Assembly (NCBI RefSeq): GCF_018350175.1 | Contig: NC_058372.1 | Coordinates: 30,566,001 to 30,630,000, forward strand | Reading direction: 5' to 3' | DNA: 64,000 nt | Source: Felis catus | Taxonomy: Eukaryota | In this document: one piece after another, positions 21,481 to 30,610 of the stretch | Numbering within the stretch: position 1 is the first letter of the stretch | How the letters are laid out: each line of letters opens with the position of its first letter | Position numbers and translations under genes: made by a program | The notes under the pieces: model-generated | Told to the model about the DNA's origin: nothing | Seen by the model: the letters and a program-made list of their open reading frames with translations, nothing else | Database searches by the model: none

Positions 21481-24400
21481 TCACCAGGAGGCCAGGCCTA
21501 GCAGAAGCAGCACCCCTCCAACTGTGCCCCACCAGGGGTTGCCCACCAGCCCTCCCCCAGCCCTTCCCCGAGTCACCGAAGTGGAGGCAGGGCTGGTGGA
21601 GGCGAGGATAGGGCCAGATGAGTGGGCAGGGGCAGCCAGCGGGTCCTAGGGAGAAGAGGGAGAGCCGGTCAGCGTGTCTGCACCCAAATTAAGCCTGCAC
21701 CTACCACCCCTTACACTGCTTATCCTGCGATGGAAAGTGGGGGTGCCTCACCTGCGGGGTGGGGGCCAGCACCAGGAGCCGGAGGAAGGCATGGGTCGGG
21801 GGCACTGGGCTGGCTTCTGGACCTGTCGCAGTCACAGTCACCATCACCACGGAGTCTGGAGCCGCTGAGTCCGGGATCTCCAACCACAGGCGCCCCCAGG
21901 CGGACTCATTTGGTTCCAGGCGAACCCTGTCGAGTACGGACGCCGGGCTGAAGGCCGAAGCTCTCGAATAGTTGAGAGCCCAGGGTCCGCGCCCAAAGCT
22001 GGAGGGGAGGGGAGGCGAGAATCTGAGGGCCAAGCGAAAGTGGCTGCTGTGGGCGGGGCTTAAAGTACCAGCTCCCACACCGGAGAGTTCAGGGGCAATA
22101 CCTGGAGAGGTTGGAGGTGAGAGCGAAGCTGGGCTTGACAGATGTCCTAAGATCGAGATCCTGAGGGTCCGAGAAGCTGGCGATGCGGAGGCTGAGCGGG
22201 GCCTTGCTGCCTGGAACCAGGAATCCCGGGGAGCCGCTGAGCTACGGAGGAGCGCGGGTCAGGCGAGGAGGAGCCGCTGCAGCTCTCTCCAGCCCTACCT
22301 GCACCTTCCTCCTGCGTCTCACCTCCAGAAGGACAGGGACCACGGTGCAGGGCTGGGGAGCAGCTCGGTGCAGGCTCTGCCCCTCTCCGTCCCGGCCAAT
22401 CAACTCCAGAGAGAAAGGTCCCGCAGTGGACAGAAGTGCAGACGGTAGCGAGGCTGCGAGGAAACCTCGCTCCAGCGGTCCCGTGGGCTCCAAAGGCACC
22501 CGGCCCAGCTCGGCACCTTCCGGGACCCCTCGTAGGACGACGTGAGAGAAATGCGGCAGAGGAGCTCCAGGGTTGCCTCTGGAGCCCAGCCCTGTCACCT
22601 CTACCAGCAGCTGGGTCTGGAGGCCTGGGACAGGGGAGGGGAGGGGAGAACACTGGTCCACATGAGATTCAGAGACAAGGAGAAAGGAATGATCAGCTTT
22701 TGGAATAGGGGTTACCTCTGGAGATGAGTATGAATGGAGAAAAGGGGTTACCTCTGAGGGCTATTGTTGGGCAGGGTCGGGAAAGATTCTGGGATGCTGA
22801 AAATGTTCTAAATCTTGAGTCGAGTGATGGTTACATGAGTGCATTATATGAAGTCCACCCAGCTGTATACTTAAGTTTAGTGCACTTCATTATATGNNNN
22901 NNNNNNNNNNNNNNNNNNNNNNNNNNNNNNNNNNNNNNNNNNNNNNNNNNNNNNNNNNNNNNNNNNNNNNNNNNNNNNNNNNNNNNNNNNNNNNNNNNNN
23001 NNNNNNNNNNNNNNNNNNNNNNNNNNATATATTAATGGACAAGTTGGGGGGGTGGGTAGACCTACCTGCAACTGGCTGAGTCAGGGGGTAGAGGCCAGGG
23101 TGGGGGCCATCCTCCACAGGGATCCCAAAGTAGAAGAGGAAGTCCAGGGATGTCTGGGCTGAGGAGGGCCAAGGCAATCAGAGACCTTCCTGAGATGAAT
23201 GTGATTGATACTGCTCTCTGAGCTCTGCAGCCTTCCCGTCCCTTCCCTTCCCAGCAATATCTCCCACCTTACCTTGCACTCTCACCCGGGGTATGCTCTC
23301 GGCTGTGACCAGGATCACCCAGGTCCCTGTCTGTGGGGGATCACTGATGGTAACTATCCAGAACTGCCCAAAGCGGCGAGTGTGACCTAGAGGTCCCTCG
23401 CCTTCCTCCTGGCCCTGGGAGACCCCTGGTGGGGGTGGGGGAGCAAGAGATTGGCACATGAGCTAGCTCCTGTCCCTTAGGATGTCACCCTTCATTCTCC
23501 ATTCTTCCCTCTGCCTTGAGACACACACGTGGAAATACCTGCAGGGTTCCTGATCCAGAAGCTGCTGACCTCCCCATGGATCCGGACTGTGACCCTCTGG
23601 AGCAGTGCATCCACGCTGAACACAAGTGGCCTTCCAGACACTACAACAGGAGGTTCCAGGGGAAGGGTAACCTAGAGGGATGGGCAGAGCCAAAAAATAG
23701 GGGAGAAGATGAGGCATTGAATGAAGTGGGAACAAAGACAGGAGAAAGGTGGAGTCAGAAAGAAACTAAGTCACACATGGAGAAGGGATACCAGTGAAAG
23801 AGGGGCCCAGGACCAGGGATGAAGTTACGGTCAACAACAAATTGGAGGCAAGGGATTAAGGGTGAGGTGATTGCTTCTTGTCCCTCCTTAAAAGATGGTA
23901 GGACTTCCGAGGACAGACTACTGGAGGCCAAGACTGGGGGACAGGGGGCAGTGCTAATAGGGAAGGAGCAACGTGGAAGTTGGGTAGCCATGGATCTCAG
24001 AGAGAGAGAGAGAAACTTCCTTTCCCACCCTTCTGACTGCAGTGGCAACACAGCAAGCAGTGTTAAACTATTAACCTATGAGAAAGAGCAGTGCCGTGTT
24101 ACCTGTACCCTCAGTTCTGAGCCAAAAGCATTAGTCCCTCCGGCCCTCATACTTACCAGGTCAGCCATGCTGTCCCCAACAACAGCTGCCACATCCTGAA
24201 TGTGCTGGTCTTTGGTGAAGATTACCTCTCCTCCTGAGGCCAAGGCCACAGCTTCATAGGGCTCAAAACGCAGAGGGGACAAGACCTCACGCCGAGCTCG
24301 GCCCTGAACCCTCGATGGGTCCTCGGTCACTAGGAATGTTACCTGTGCCCAGAAAAAGAGGCCAGTACTGAGTACTCCAAGTGCTGTCTACCATTGTCAA

Positions 24401-27400
24401 TGAGGATCTGTGCTCAAGTGTTCTGCGGAGCTGATGAGGAGGAGTAAGGTCTTGGTCTACCCTCTGACTGTTCCTGCAGGGTCTCCCAATGACACAGCCC
24501 CAGGCCTTCAGTTAGTAGTTGCCACTCCCTGTAACTGTCTCCATTTGTCATCCACAGCGGATTGCTGGCAACTAGATCTCCAGTTCTTCAAATGGTTTAT
24601 TGGAGACCAGTTCAAATATGCACTCAGCATCATGTAAGGGATCAGGATGTGTTATACTCATTGTCTGCTTCTCCCACCCCATGCCAAGGCTGGTTCAACC
24701 ACCAGAGTGTGGTGTGATCCTTGTTATGAGATAGTCGTCAACAAGGTATGGGAAACCCCATATCTCTGGGTGGCTAACATCGGATGTCCCATCAGCTGTG
24801 CTCACTCTGCAGCGCCGCTCCTGAGTCAGGGACTCCACCCGGTTGGTGAGAAAGGCATCCTTGGGGGAGGCGTCGGTGAAGACAAAGATGTCTGAGAGTG
24901 GAGGTGTGTGCAGCAGAGCCAGCTGGCAGAGAGGGAAAGTGCTCGTGTTAAAAATGGCAGCAGCAGAGGAATGGGTAGAGGAAGGGAGGGCAGAATAGAA
25001 AGAAATATGGCCCTGGAACCCTGGAGTGAAGCTAGTGGACCTAGGCTCTGAAGGTAGGGTGGAGGGTGGAGGTCCCAGGAAGCCTCTAGTTCCCCTTGGT
25101 GGTGGGAACTGGAAAGGAAGGGGGAAGAAGGGAAGGGGGAGGGGGAGGGCAGACCTCCAGGGCTGACAGACACATCTCAGGCTCATCTCCACCCCCCAAG
25201 GCATGGATCTCATTGAGTTGTTGCCAGAAGCTATCAGGGTCACTGGTGGTAAAGACAGGGCCAAACCCTGGGGAGGAAGAAAGAAGGTTGAGATGAGTGA
25301 CGAGAGGGCTCCCCTCATCCCTACCCAGGGCCACCTCTCACCCCCCAGTCAAGAGGCCTCGCTGTGCTCCTGGGGTGAACAAGTATTGAAATAATAATAT
25401 TCTCTGATATTTCTATAGGCAGGGCTGGGTAAGGGCTAGTTACCTTTGCGGGGAAGTGGACCTCATTTCCTTAACAAAATGGCAGCATTTCCTGTGGTCC
25501 TGAGAGAGCCGTTATTGGATATGTGCGTAAGTATAAAAAAACACCTGGGGCCTCAGATTCCTCACCAGAAAAATCAGAGAAATAATGGTACCTACCTCAG
25601 AGTGTCATTAGAAGGACTAAATGAGTTGATTTTGTAAACCTTAGAATAGTGACTTGACATATAATTAATGCTAAACTCAAAGCTTCATCAAATATGTGAT
25701 AAACCAGGGCGCCTGGGTGGCTCAGTCAGTTAAGCGTCCAACTTCGGCTCAGGTCATGATCTCTCACTCTGTGAGTTCGAGCCCCGCGTCAGGCTCTGTG
25801 CCAACGGCTCGGAACCCGGAGCCTGCTTCAGATTCTGTGTCTCCCTCTCTCTGACCCTCCCCTGTCCATGCTCTGTCTCTCTCTGACTCAAAAATAAATA
25901 AACATTAAAAAAAATTAAAAATAATATGTGATAAACCCCTGTTAAATTCCAGCTACTATGAGATTTATGCAGGTAAATCAGACTCAACGCTTGCCTTTAG
26001 GGAATTCTCAGCGCTGTAGCTATTTTATTTGATGGCCATTTCAACCCTAGAAAATCCTGCCTATCTTCTAGGGTTGAAATGGCCATCAGATAATATAGGT
26101 CAAGTACTGACTCATTTTATCGATGATGAAACTGAGGCAAAAAAAGTCTAAATGATCAGCCTAAGCATGCACAGTGACTGGTCAACCCGGGTCAGTCGGT
26201 CTAACTTCCAATCTGTCTCAGAGGCTTCACAGAGGCCTGGACCCATCCTCATCCCAACCTCTGTGTACAGAAAATGGGGAGAATTGAAAATCACTGATTA
26301 ACATGGAAGCCTAAGAAAGCAGAGGCCCCTGGCTAAGCACAGATCATGATTAACCTCATATGGAAAGTGCTGCCATTTTGGAAACAGAGGAAGAAGTAGC
26401 CGATCGTACACACAGAGGTACCAGTAAAGGCTCAACCATAGGAAACGTCACCATTTTAAGGAAGTGGAGCCATGAGGCCCTTTCCCCCACCAGTGGCATT
26501 TACCCCTTGCCCTAGACTTTCCTTCCTTCCGCTATCCTCACCAGACCACAGTTACCTGGATCATGGAAAGGGACCAGGATGTAGTGGACAGGCTCCATGG
26601 GGCTGCCCCGTCGCTGTTCCACAATGTGGCGAGCCTGGATTTTGGCAGCATTGATCTCCTCACCCATACTGCCTGTGGTGTCTAGGACGAAGCTCAGACT
26701 GGAGGCTGGGCTGATGTCCAGCAGCCTGGGGAGCAGGCCAGAGATACGGTGAGGAGTCTGCACATTTGTCCCCAGCCCCCATTTACTCAGCTCCCCTAGG
26801 AGCACATGCGCATTAAGGAGCACATCGCCCAGAGGCCACTCACCTGGAGAAACCCCTGTCTCCCAGCCGGTTTCGCAGGAGACTGAGGGCCTGGATGGAG
26901 GCCAGAAGGGCCAGTTTTGCTGCCTGGAGGTGCAGCATGTGATGGGGAGAGAAGCCTGGGGATGTGCTATCCTTGTTGATGCCTCCCCGTGGTGGCTGGG
27001 AGCTGCTCTGGTCAAAACGGCCCCCATGGCTACATTTCCCTGGTTTGGGGAAAGAGATCTGGAGGGTGGAGGTAAAAAACCCACTGCCTCCTAAGAAAAT
27101 GAGGCCCTTTTTGACCTGGCCTGACCTCTCACTCTTCAGCAAAGGATCAGCAAGAAAGATGACATTTGTGGAGGGCCAATCTGGAGTAAATCTAGAGGGG
27201 TCAGTCATCACAGTACATGGTGGATCCCCTAATCCCTCCAGTCCATCCCCCAAAGCTACCCTTGGGTAATGGAGAAGTCTTACTGGTTGAATAAGAAGCT
27301 ATTCCCCCACCCAACAATCATGGCCACCTCAGTGGGCCTCCATCCATCTACCCCATCCCCAGCATCCACTCCTTCCAGAAGTGATGCCATAGGAAATGGG

Positions 27401-29842
27401 ACAAGGGCCTACAGTTCTGAGATCCCTAGGGAGAGGGTCAGGGGAAAGGAAGTGACTTTCTCCCCTTACTTCTGCCTGGTACCTGGAGGTTTGGAGGGAT
27501 GAGTTCCAAAGTAGCCAGAGGTGAGGAGTGTAAAGCCCAGCAAATTCCCGGGGCAGCTCAACTCCTCGCAATCAGAGCAGGTAGGATCGTCCACTGGGAA
27601 GAGAGGATAGGGGTCTAGATCCCAAGATCCTGCCACCACTGACCTTTATCCCCATCCATCCAAACTTTGGCTTTTCCCTGAGCTGGCAAAAGCCCAAATG
27701 TACCCTTCTAGGATTTCTGAACAAAAACCTAGAGGTCATCTAGTGATGAGACTGAATATGTGAGACCGGGACTGTGCTAGGAAACCCGGAAGCGTGAGCT
27801 GTGGACAGGAAGTGAACTTGTAATGGACAGGAGGCTGCGTCATAGCTCAGGTGGAAGGATGAGGGGACTGTGAGGAACAGCCCTGTATGTTCCATCCCAT
27901 GTTGGGGGAGGAAGCCACACGAGAGAGAACTCAGCTGAGGTCTGCAGACCTTGGTCCTGGCTCTGTCCACCCCTGTGACCTTGGGGAAGCTATCTAACTG
28001 ACCTGGCCTTTGGCTGGACTGGGGGACCTCACAGGTCGTTCCAGAGAAGAAGCCATGTCACATCCTATGTGACCTGAGGATGTGACACAGTGTCTGGGGA
28101 GGCTGAGGGCTGAGAGGACATGGCTTTAGTGGGCTTCCCCCATCCCCCAGGGTCATGGCCGTACCTTGTGCCAGGCTCCGGAGCTCCTGCCTAGGCCAGA
28201 GGAGGTGAGGGTGTGGCTGCTGCTGTCCCAGTTCCACCCAGTTGCTGTGACTGTAGAAATCCTGGGGGGAGGGAGGGCGAAGGGGAATGAGGCGCTGTCT
28301 GACCATTCTCACAATCTCCAGCGCTTATTCTTCCTCTTGGAAAGCCTCCTCCTACCCCCGCTGCCGCTGTCAGATACCCCAAGTGCCCTCCACACCCTCT
28401 GCCTGTCGCCCAGAACAGAGCTCTCCCCAGGTGGGAGCCTCCCGGTCTTTCCTCCCATCCCACTCAGAGTTCAACCAAAGGCCTTCCGGTGGCCTTCAAG
28501 GCCCACTCCCAACCTCACGCCTCCTCGCTTTTCTCCAGCCACACTGGCCTCCTGGCTCTTCCCACAGGGAGAGCTGCCAGTTTGGAGGTGGGGGAACTAG
28601 GGACCAGTCTCAGGGCACTGGCAAGCAGTGCCCCATCACTTCTTGAGTTGGGGGAGGTGTGATTAAGAAGGCACCATGAGGGGGCGCCTGGGTGGCTCAG
28701 TCAGTTAAGCGTCAGACTCTTGATATCTGTTCAGGTCCTGATCTTGTGGTTGGTAAGATCAAGCGCTGATGGTGCAAAGNNNNNNNNNNNNNNNNNNNNN
28801 NNNNNNNNNNNNNNNNNNNNNNNNNNNNNNNNNNNNNNNNNNNNNNNNNNNNNNNNNNNNNNNNNNNNNNNNNNNNNNNNNNNNNNNNNNNNNNNNNNNN
28901 NNNNNNNNNNNNNNNNNNNNNNNNNNNCTGTATCTGGGGGACGGGAAGACCTGGGGTGAAGAAACCCCTGCCCATTTTATGCAGTTCTCACCTGCAAAGC
29001 ATGAAGTGCAGCCCCAAGGCGCTGGCGGGCCAGGGTGTGGTCAAGAGCTCTGGCTGCCACCAGGGCCTCCCGGAGAGCCCCCACTAGGCGTGTGCGCCCC
29101 TGGCCCAGCCGCTCAGCATCAAAGTGCAGGTCAGGGTCATTCCTGGATGTTGGCAGAAAGTCCTGGGCTGCGTTGGCACGGGAGACCTCACCTAAGGCTG
29201 CTCGGAACCTCCGGGAAGGAGACCCAGGTCCAAAGTAGGCAGCAAAGAGGTCGTCAGCAAGAAGGGTGTGGCCCTGGAGAGAGTGGGTTAGGGGACAGGG
29301 GACCCTTGGGTTGCACCATTGCCCACGTTTTCTTAGCAACTGGCACTCAGGTTGGGTGTGCAGGGAATTGAAGGTCCTGGGCCCTACGAAGGAAGGGCAA
29401 TTCTGGACCTTTCTAAGGAGGAGGGAGGGAAGGACTCCTGATTTTAGGACCAGGACACTTGGGTATTGTTACTGCAAGGGGTAGAGGTGGGGAGCCAAGG
29501 AAGAGAAGGATGTCCCTCCTCTTGGCCAGCAGGGCCCTGAAGAAGTAGAAGTCCCAGGGAATTGGGGAGTCCAGCTGGGATGTGACAGGACCTGGGGAGG
29601 CTCACCAGGAAATCCTCAAGACGAAGCGGGGGACGGCCTGGGGGTGGCTGATCCAGGAAGAGCTGCAGGGTGACATTGAGCGCCGCCTCCTCGGTCAGGT
29701 CCTGGTGGGTGACGGACCCGGGGGCAGCCAGGAGGCTCCAGATGTTGGGGAAGAAGGAGGATGCAGGGGGCAGCAGCTGCAGTAGCAGCAGCAGCAGCAG
29801 TGAAGGATTCAGGTGGGCCAGGGGCACGTCTGCAGGGAGCAT
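21481..29842 (-). CDS. VWA7: von Willebrand factor A domain-containing protein 7 (G7c), 889 aa
   Basis: 16 coding exons (-): 29842-29606, 29273-28992, 28261-28165, 27593-27483, 27039-26844, 26725-26556, 25267-25155, 24922-24806, 24342-24157, 23671-23539, 23425-23273, 23158-23066, 22624-22323, 22241-22102, 21926-21752, 21645-21481. Total 2670 nt, frame-consistent at every junction. Poly-Leu signal peptide, [13 protein letters not shown], vWA motif [13 protein letters not shown], hydrophobic C-terminus [10 protein letters not shown]. Confidence 0.96.
25707..25920 (+). mobile_element. Can-SINE in a VWA7 intron, next to a MIR remnant at about 25540-25680
   Basis: Full consensus; TSD AATATGTGATAAACC. 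Confidence 0.9.
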
Positions 29843-30604: not shown

Positions 30605-30610
30605 TTTATT
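30605..30610 (-). terminator. VARS1 polyadenylation signal AATAAA
   Basis: TTTATT on the + strand, 55 nt past the VARS1 stop. Confidence 0.75.

Follow-up and report, generated by a model that had tools for sequence, protein, structure and literature searches.

What does the N-terminal domain of VWA7 do? The gene for this protein (aliases G7c, NG37, and C6orf27) lies on the minus strand of a 64,000-nucleotide stretch of the Felis catus genome (RefSeq assembly GCF_018350175.1, contig NC_058372.1, positions 30,566,001 to 30,630,000 of the forward strand; hereafter the window), and a sequence-only reading of this DNA had proposed that the domain carries the ligand pattern of a zinc phospholipase C (PLC) or nuclease P1-type enzyme and that VWA7 may be an extracellular metal-dependent phosphodiesterase. 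The analysis described here leads to a predicted PLC/P1-nuclease fold for the domain and to nine candidate metal ligands, F30, H46, D117, H129, H170, D174, H178, H247, and D266, which are conserved from mammals to bacteria. Judged from the models and alignments, it is quite probable that VWA7 is an active metal hydrolase, whatever its substrate; that it is a cell-surface, three-zinc phosphodiesterase of the PLC/P1 fold, with a membrane lipid phosphodiester as its most likely substrate, has about an even chance of being right.

A prediction of this kind has been in print since 2012, so the family link is not a discovery. Zhang et al. (PMC3482391) predicted that Het-C shares its fold and active site with the zinc PLCs and the S1-P1 nucleases, described the animal version as a cell-surface protein of the vertebrate major histocompatibility complex (MHC) class III region that is possibly a defensive toxin, and left open whether Het-C is a nuclease or a phospholipase. 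By index, the full text contains G7c twice and von Willebrand once, which fits the titles of two G7c papers; because of these counts, the MHC class III protein in question is almost certainly VWA7. The Zhang et al. table lists HxD, HxxxDxxxH-Nxx[DE], and [ST]G as the motifs of Het-C (Tox-HET-C, PF07217), and the available text, in which the profile match is borderline (50% probability), gives no gene name, VWA7 residue map, or structure. The resemblance to HET-C that had been noted from the sequence is indeed present but weak: the Pfam Het-C model matches cat VWA7 at aa 157-185 with an E of 0.0022 and 17.1 bits, below its 21-bit cut-off, while among 12 VWA7 relatives 3 pass the cut-off and 6 more match below it. 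A Het-C search of 301 genomes of the proteobacterial phylum gave one weak match, not enough to build a profile from, and the VWA7 domain has its own Pfam family, VWA7_N (PF25107), apart from Het-C. No biochemical test of VWA7 was found in the literature searched, whose coverage left subscription journals largely outside, and the available parts of PMC12881547 and PMC6838775 add nothing on Het-C catalysis.

The motifs on which the sequence-only reading was built are all present, on the minus strand, in exons 1 to 5 of an intact gene. Exons 1 to 5 (Table 1) and exon 6 (26725-26556) each have a GT donor, exons 2 to 6 have an AG acceptor, and the six splice into 364 residues with no stop, 364/364 of which are identical to Felis catus VWA7 isoform X1 (P0007). 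Since the full P0007 (913 residues) can be placed on 16 segments of the window, from 29842 to 21484, the cat VWA7 gene is intact. VWA7_N covers aa 85-306 of P0007 with an E of 1.2e-82, and the other four Pfam families are likewise over cut-off. The motifs comprise PPASS/FFPN (S29/F30), T-H46-QDLT, ANAAQ-D117, DL-H129-FD, LGAAL-H170-ALQ-D174-FYS-H178-SNW, CS-H247-GG, and P-H275-H276-ML-H279.

A search with the mature domain (aa 30-313) against 1.84 billion cluster representatives gave 1370 proteins at E <= 0.001, of which the best 150, mostly 33-50% identical to the cat query, were taken, and 149 representatives of 50%-identity clusters were aligned. The relatives include gecko, shark, crinoid, crustaceans, the fungus Orbilia, and Actinoplanes. 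Counted as rows kept over rows aligned, the residues score as follows: F30, 124/127; H46, 125/129; D117, 136/142; H129, 130/140; H170, 138/142; D174, 132/143; H178, 131/142; H247, 142/143; D252, 136/141; D266, 132/143; H275, 129/143; H279, 136/144; and H276, only 39/141. Elsewhere in the domain, most His, Asp, and Glu residues persist in 1-50% of rows, and the motifs are beyond chance. Thus, the check on orthologs finds the nine residues kept in most relatives. The first six His/Asp residues proposed as ligands, from H46 to H178, are conserved in the order claimed, and H46, D117, H129, H170, and D174, with the Zn1/Zn3-type order His, Asp, His, HxxxD, are found in 92-97% of aligned representatives. 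Highly conserved motifs are also present in aa 179-275, namely TSGY, KCSHGG, and GINKD.

The aromatic N-terminus that had been proposed to follow the signal peptide is upheld as well, with the cut site judged by pattern only. In nearly all relatives the Phe sits directly after a hydrophobic segment ending in small residues (of 120 matches, 96 have Ala and 21 have Ser as residue 29), and the residues that follow it vary in sequence and in length. Prokaryotic genomes, bacterial as well as archaeal, were scanned for the pattern QDFYSH[ST]N; 537 of 601 candidate stretches were confirmed and 80 loci kept. D174 and H178 are fixed by construction in these loci, being part of the pattern, and F30 is aligned in 70 of the 80, often behind an Ala-x-Ala type site. 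All nine candidate ligands are identical in 54 of 56 bacterial loci and in 191 of 213 protein matches with the nine columns filled, the latter drawn from 234 matches with at least 75% coverage after shorter rows were dropped, some matches having been preselected by a loose core pattern.

Support for the fold comes from structure prediction. An AlphaFold2 model of the mature domain, built on a 115-row alignment, has a mean predicted local distance difference test score (pLDDT) of 96 and a predicted template modelling score (pTM) of 0.93. When this model was compared with 48,161 chains in a search independent of Foldseek, the top six were all PLCs or S1/P1 nucleases: 1olp (Z 10.2, root-mean-square deviation 3.5, 159 residues aligned), 1ah7 (9.2, 3.5, 154), 8cqm (8.6, 3.5, 153), 8qjl (Z 7.1), 5fb9 (6.7), and 3w52 (6.3), with the first unrelated chain at 4.9. 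In a repeat of the structural comparison, the PLC entries stood at Z 8.7-10.4 and the following row at 4.1. Residue 1 of the model was aligned to residue 1 (Trp1) of 1ah7 and to residue 21 (Trp21) of S1 nuclease, which is the N-terminal zinc-binding Trp of that enzyme (PMC5201275). As a replicate, a stand-alone 214-residue bacterial relative (L069; hhalign probability against the VWA7 family, 99.5) was modelled on its own 120-row alignment with a pLDDT of 91.7; it retrieved the identical six top chains, at Z 9.5, 9.5, 9.0, 7.2, 6.5, and 6.1, with the next at 5.3. The VWA7 domain is predicted to have the PLC/P1-nuclease fold on four grounds: the two models agree, the matches belong to a single superfamily, the termini line up, and the ligands come in a fitting order. 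The proposed check by profile and structure came out divided, with a structural match to PLC/P1 and no sequence or profile match, and the models make VWA7 a likely PLC/P1-fold hydrolase by predicted structure, not a member of PF00882 or PF02265 by profile.

How, then, might the metals be held? In Bacillus cereus PLC, Zn1 is bound by Asp55, His69, His118, and Asp122, Zn2 by His128, His142, and Glu146, and Zn3 by Trp1 and Asp122 (PMC10420013). F30, H46, D117, H129, H170, D174, and H178 of VWA7 follow the PLC ligand order. The B. cereus enzyme has His14 as a further Zn3 ligand. The VWA7 candidate set, one N-terminal aromatic residue, five His, and three Asp, equals the S1/P1 set of one Trp, three Asp, and five His (PMC4144908). 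For the last ligands, the sequence-only reading had offered H247 and the cluster PHHMLH, and it had not listed the GINKD motif. The cluster has been given up as the third site, as H276 is variable and H279 corresponds to a non-His residue in a minimal subfamily of the domain. In an alignment of that subfamily (120 rows), the counterparts of the eight His/Asp candidates and of the N-terminal residue are all strongly conserved: D34, H46, H87, D91, H95, H158, and D164 do not vary, and at least 90% of rows retain M1 and H6. By hhalign, H158 pairs with H247 and D164 with D266 of VWA7. In distant relatives, the segment that begins at H247 and runs to the NKD motif can be as short as H-x5-D, and a His followed by a [ILMV][NHQS][KLM]D motif is found in 73 of the 80 prokaryotic loci, with a gap of 6-27, versus 2% in shuffles; five of the seven loci lacking a pair of the H247-D266 type are truncated frames. 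Given this pairing, the conservation, and the minimal-subfamily alignment, H178, H247, and D266 of the GINKD motif most likely form the third metal site. D252 was considered as the equivalent of Glu146 and is disfavoured, since in 14 of the 73 loci the gap from the His to the NKD-type motif holds no acidic residue. Covariation of H178 with D266 (8 of 10 changes at H178 go with a change at D266) was also set aside: 9 of the 10 rows come from one 15-member clade, so that the covariation amounts to no more than two or three events.

It was also considered where the protein resides. At its C-terminus, a Ser/Thr/Pro-rich linker and then small residues precede a hydrophobic end, and no cytoplasmic tail follows; a hydrophobic end of this kind is found in 65 of 69 full-length mammalian matches and 30 of 61 long representatives, versus 9.6% of internal windows. 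From these features, the C-terminus is likely to be a signal for a glycosylphosphatidylinositol (GPI) anchor. VWA7 is probably tethered by the GPI-like tail and not simply released. A literature search for VWA7 together with GPI gave, in the parts of the texts available, only papers on other subjects. Among other VWA7 relatives, several have a membrane segment with a basic tail and others no anchor.

Taken together, these results suggest a working model. Signal peptidase would free the amino group of Phe30, which, with His46 and Asp174, would hold Zn3; Zn1 would be held by Asp117, His129, His170, and Asp174, and Zn2 by His178, His247, and Asp266. A bridging, zinc-bound hydroxide would then attack phosphorus by the route known from B. 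cereus PLC and S1 nuclease, with the conserved Lys265 perhaps stabilising the transition state. The VWA and beta-sandwich domains would serve for targeting or as a stalk, and a GPI anchor would replace the hydrophobic tail. The known enzymes closest to this model are the zinc PLCs (B. cereus phosphatidylcholine (PC)-specific PLC, 1ah7; Listeria PLC, 8cqm; the N-domain of clostridial alpha-toxin, 1olp/1ca1), which share with VWA7 a predicted helical fold over about 150-160 residues, an N-terminus placed at Trp1, the order of the candidate ligands, and, if the predicted signal cut is right, secretion with a processed N-terminus. However, identity to them is 12-16%, and VWA7 has Phe instead of Trp, HxxxDxxxH instead of HxxxDxxxxxH, and, in place of the HxxxE spacing of the PLC Zn2 ligands, a last pair (H247 and D266) 19 residues apart; it also has a cysteine loop, followed by VWA, beta-sandwich, and immunoglobulin (Ig) domains and the GPI-like tail. 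Mammals have GPLD1, a GPI-specific phospholipase D, which is a secreted zinc enzyme with a PF00882-type N-terminal domain. GPLD1 was absent from the structural matches, and a PF00882 search of the cat genome gave nothing at E <= 0.001.

A number of observations weigh against the model. Foldseek lists PLC structures in all rows to rank 16 for the VWA7 model, at E values that are not significant (0.06-0.85, and 0.2-0.9 for the L069 relative), and a Z of 9-10 is inside the range in which the structural search tool advises caution (under about 13, possibly a common helical arrangement). Only about 150-160 of 284 residues are aligned, a little over half of the domain. The model shows a single short helix from aa 178 to aa 276, whereas PLC has several in the matching region; consequently, the Zn2 ligands are assigned by conservation and not by superposition. 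Furthermore, phmmer of P0007 against the PDB gave 0 matches at E <= 10, two profile searches of the PDB gave no match for the domain, and hhalign against 15 S1/P1 and 6-9 PF00882 proteins was not significant (probability <1%). PF00882 and PF02265 have no match in P0007 at E <= 5 or in 12 relatives at E <= 0.1, and a feature search of the ESM Atlas gave only leads below 0.9, including one cluster with 12% PF00882 at 0.82. Relatives with altered ligands exist, in paralogue clades, and VWA7 has been lost in the thylacine and the numbat (bioRxiv 2025.03.27.645633). Finally, rank by Z is a poor guide to substrate in the PLC/P1 superfamily.

This last point bears on the choice of substrate. A lipid or glycolipid is favoured because PLCs outrank nucleases in both models and because the tail resembles a membrane anchor; the preference is weak, and such a substrate has about an even chance against all the other readings, the non-catalytic one included. 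The same metal site could instead act on extracellular nucleic acid or nucleotides, making VWA7 an S1/P1-type ecto-nuclease or nucleotidase, possibly in defence as Zhang et al. suggested. The S1/P1 nucleases (5fb9, 8qjl, 3w52; PF02265) resemble VWA7 in fold and in their N-terminal residue, five His, and three Asp; they come fourth to sixth in each of the fold searches, their ligand count is exactly five His and three Asp, the conserved Lys265 could act like Lys68 of S1, if the two are equivalent, and the available text of PMC3482391 kept nuclease and phospholipase both possible. However, their structural match (Z 6.1-7.2) is weaker than that of the PLCs (8.6-10.2), they give no profile match, and no counterpart of the S1 nucleoside pocket was recognised in VWA7. 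A nucleic acid or nucleotide substrate is considered unlikely.

It is more doubtful still that the metallo-hydrolase is active on another substrate, such as a glycan-phosphate, a teichoic-acid-type polymer, or other microbial surface phosphodiesters, with the cysteine loop and the His247-Asp266 insert forming a new binding surface. The region aa 179-275, which is unlike PLC and S1 in secondary structure and yet contains the conserved TSGY, KCSHGG, and GINKD motifs, would fit such a surface, as would the secreted multi-domain architecture common to bacteria and a fungus, but the analysis turned up no positive evidence for any such substrate. An adhesion or matrix protein without catalysis, in which the metal site has a structural role or binds, but does not cleave, a phosphorylated ligand, is similarly improbable: the rest of VWA7 resembles the hemicentin head, ligands have been lost in paralogues of several animal phyla, and no VWA7 activity was found in the literature searched, but cat VWA7 retains each of the nine candidate ligands, the Asp55 equivalent among them, as do most relatives as far as bacteria, including stand-alone 210-residue forms with no adhesion domains.

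Returning to the lipid phosphodiesterase, one specific form of it would make VWA7 a GPI-anchored, B. cereus-type PC/sphingomyelin PLC of the mammalian cell surface and a candidate gene for mammalian PC-PLC activity. A 2023 review calls the gene for mammalian PC-PLC unidentified and notes that sphingomyelin synthases show such activity (PMC10420013); VWA7 is an unlikely answer. Overexpression of NG37 in mice leads to a diet-dependent fatty liver (PMC4968443), a phenotype that is compatible with a lipid role and does not show one; the construct carried an N-terminal FLAG ahead of the signal peptide. VWA7 also appears in disease-association studies; its description is limited to the VWA domain.

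In one clade of VWA7-like paralogues (P0173, P0194, P0214, P0232, P0256, P0272; hosts paddlefish, lizard, amphioxus, hemichordate, oyster, and ribbon worm), H178 is changed to Asn together with D266 to Glu, and some members have also lost H46 and D174; in the crustacean proteins P0152, P0153, P0180, and P0205, D174 is changed to Lys. From these substitutions, both groups are likely to be altered-site or inactive versions. Many bacteria and a nematode-trapping fungus have secreted proteins of 800-1700 residues with the VWA7 domain order (L002-L066, P0246, P0261, P0263). A stand-alone family of about 210 residues occurs in Chloroflexota (L069:3938-4579, L073:3938-4570, L080:3953-4582; 130 relatives); its members have no signal peptide, a Met-x4-His start, all the candidate ligands, and a common gene neighbourhood, in which the neighbours are presumably YqeY, a membrane HD-type hydrolase, and YbeY.

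Table 1. Features of the cat VWA7 gene, in window positions.
Feature	Position	Strand	Candidate equivalents in B. cereus PLC	Basis
Predicted signal peptide, aa 1-29, exon 1	29756..29842	-		Leu-rich stretch; cut site by pattern only
Exon 1, aa 1-79: signal peptide, F30 (codon 29755-29753), H46 (29707-29705)	29606..29842	-	F30 = Trp1, H46 = His14	splice map, conservation
Exon 2, aa 80-173: N113, D117 (29162), H129 (29126), D131, E133, H170 (29003), Q173	28992..29273	-	D117 = Asp55, H129 = His69, H170 = His118	
Exon 3, aa 174-206: D174 (28261), H178 (28249), N180, E183	28165..28261	-	D174 = bridging Asp122, H178 = His128	
Exon 4, aa 206-243: cysteine loop (C211, C214, C219), TSGY motif	27483..27593	-		
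Exon 5, aa 243-308: C245, H247 (27028), D252, N264-K265-D266 (26971), H275/H276/H279, last long helix	26844..27039	-	likely H247 = His142, D266 = Glu146	
VWA domain, aa 317-485, DTTGS motif, exons 6-9	24211..26700 (approximate)	-		Pfam VWA_4 E 4e-65
Beta-sandwich and Ig-like domains, aa about 505-859	21752..23668	-		Pfam PF23560, PF23610, PF23619
Last coding exon, aa 860-913, GPI-anchor-signal-like end	21484..21645	-		conservation of hydrophobic end

A predicted cat isoform, P0006, does not have the exon 5 residues (27039-26844), hence neither H247 nor D266, and, if real, would be without the third metal site. Directly upstream of VWA7, on the same strand, are exons of valyl-tRNA synthetase, which fits the adjacency of VARS1 in MHC class III; that gene comes to its end, with AATAAA at 30610, only some 770 bases short of the VWA7 start codon (30610-29842). 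A camel database protein, P0020, is a valyl-tRNA synthetase-VWA7 fusion and is probably a gene-model artefact or read-through. An intronless Hsp70 reading frame of 641 codons lies at 56945-55023 on the minus strand, as expected in an MHC class III interval; from its start, we take it to be HSPA1L-like.

Beyond the published prediction, the present work supports the fold with two models, maps nine candidate ligands and corrects the third site among them, points to a likely GPI anchor, and gives a reason to leave the native N-terminus untagged. The small stand-alone bacterial relative should be easy to express, and together these additions make the question of VWA7 activity directly testable. 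If VWA7 is a surface zinc phosphodiesterase, mammals would have in it an orphan enzyme whose active site is of a druggable kind.

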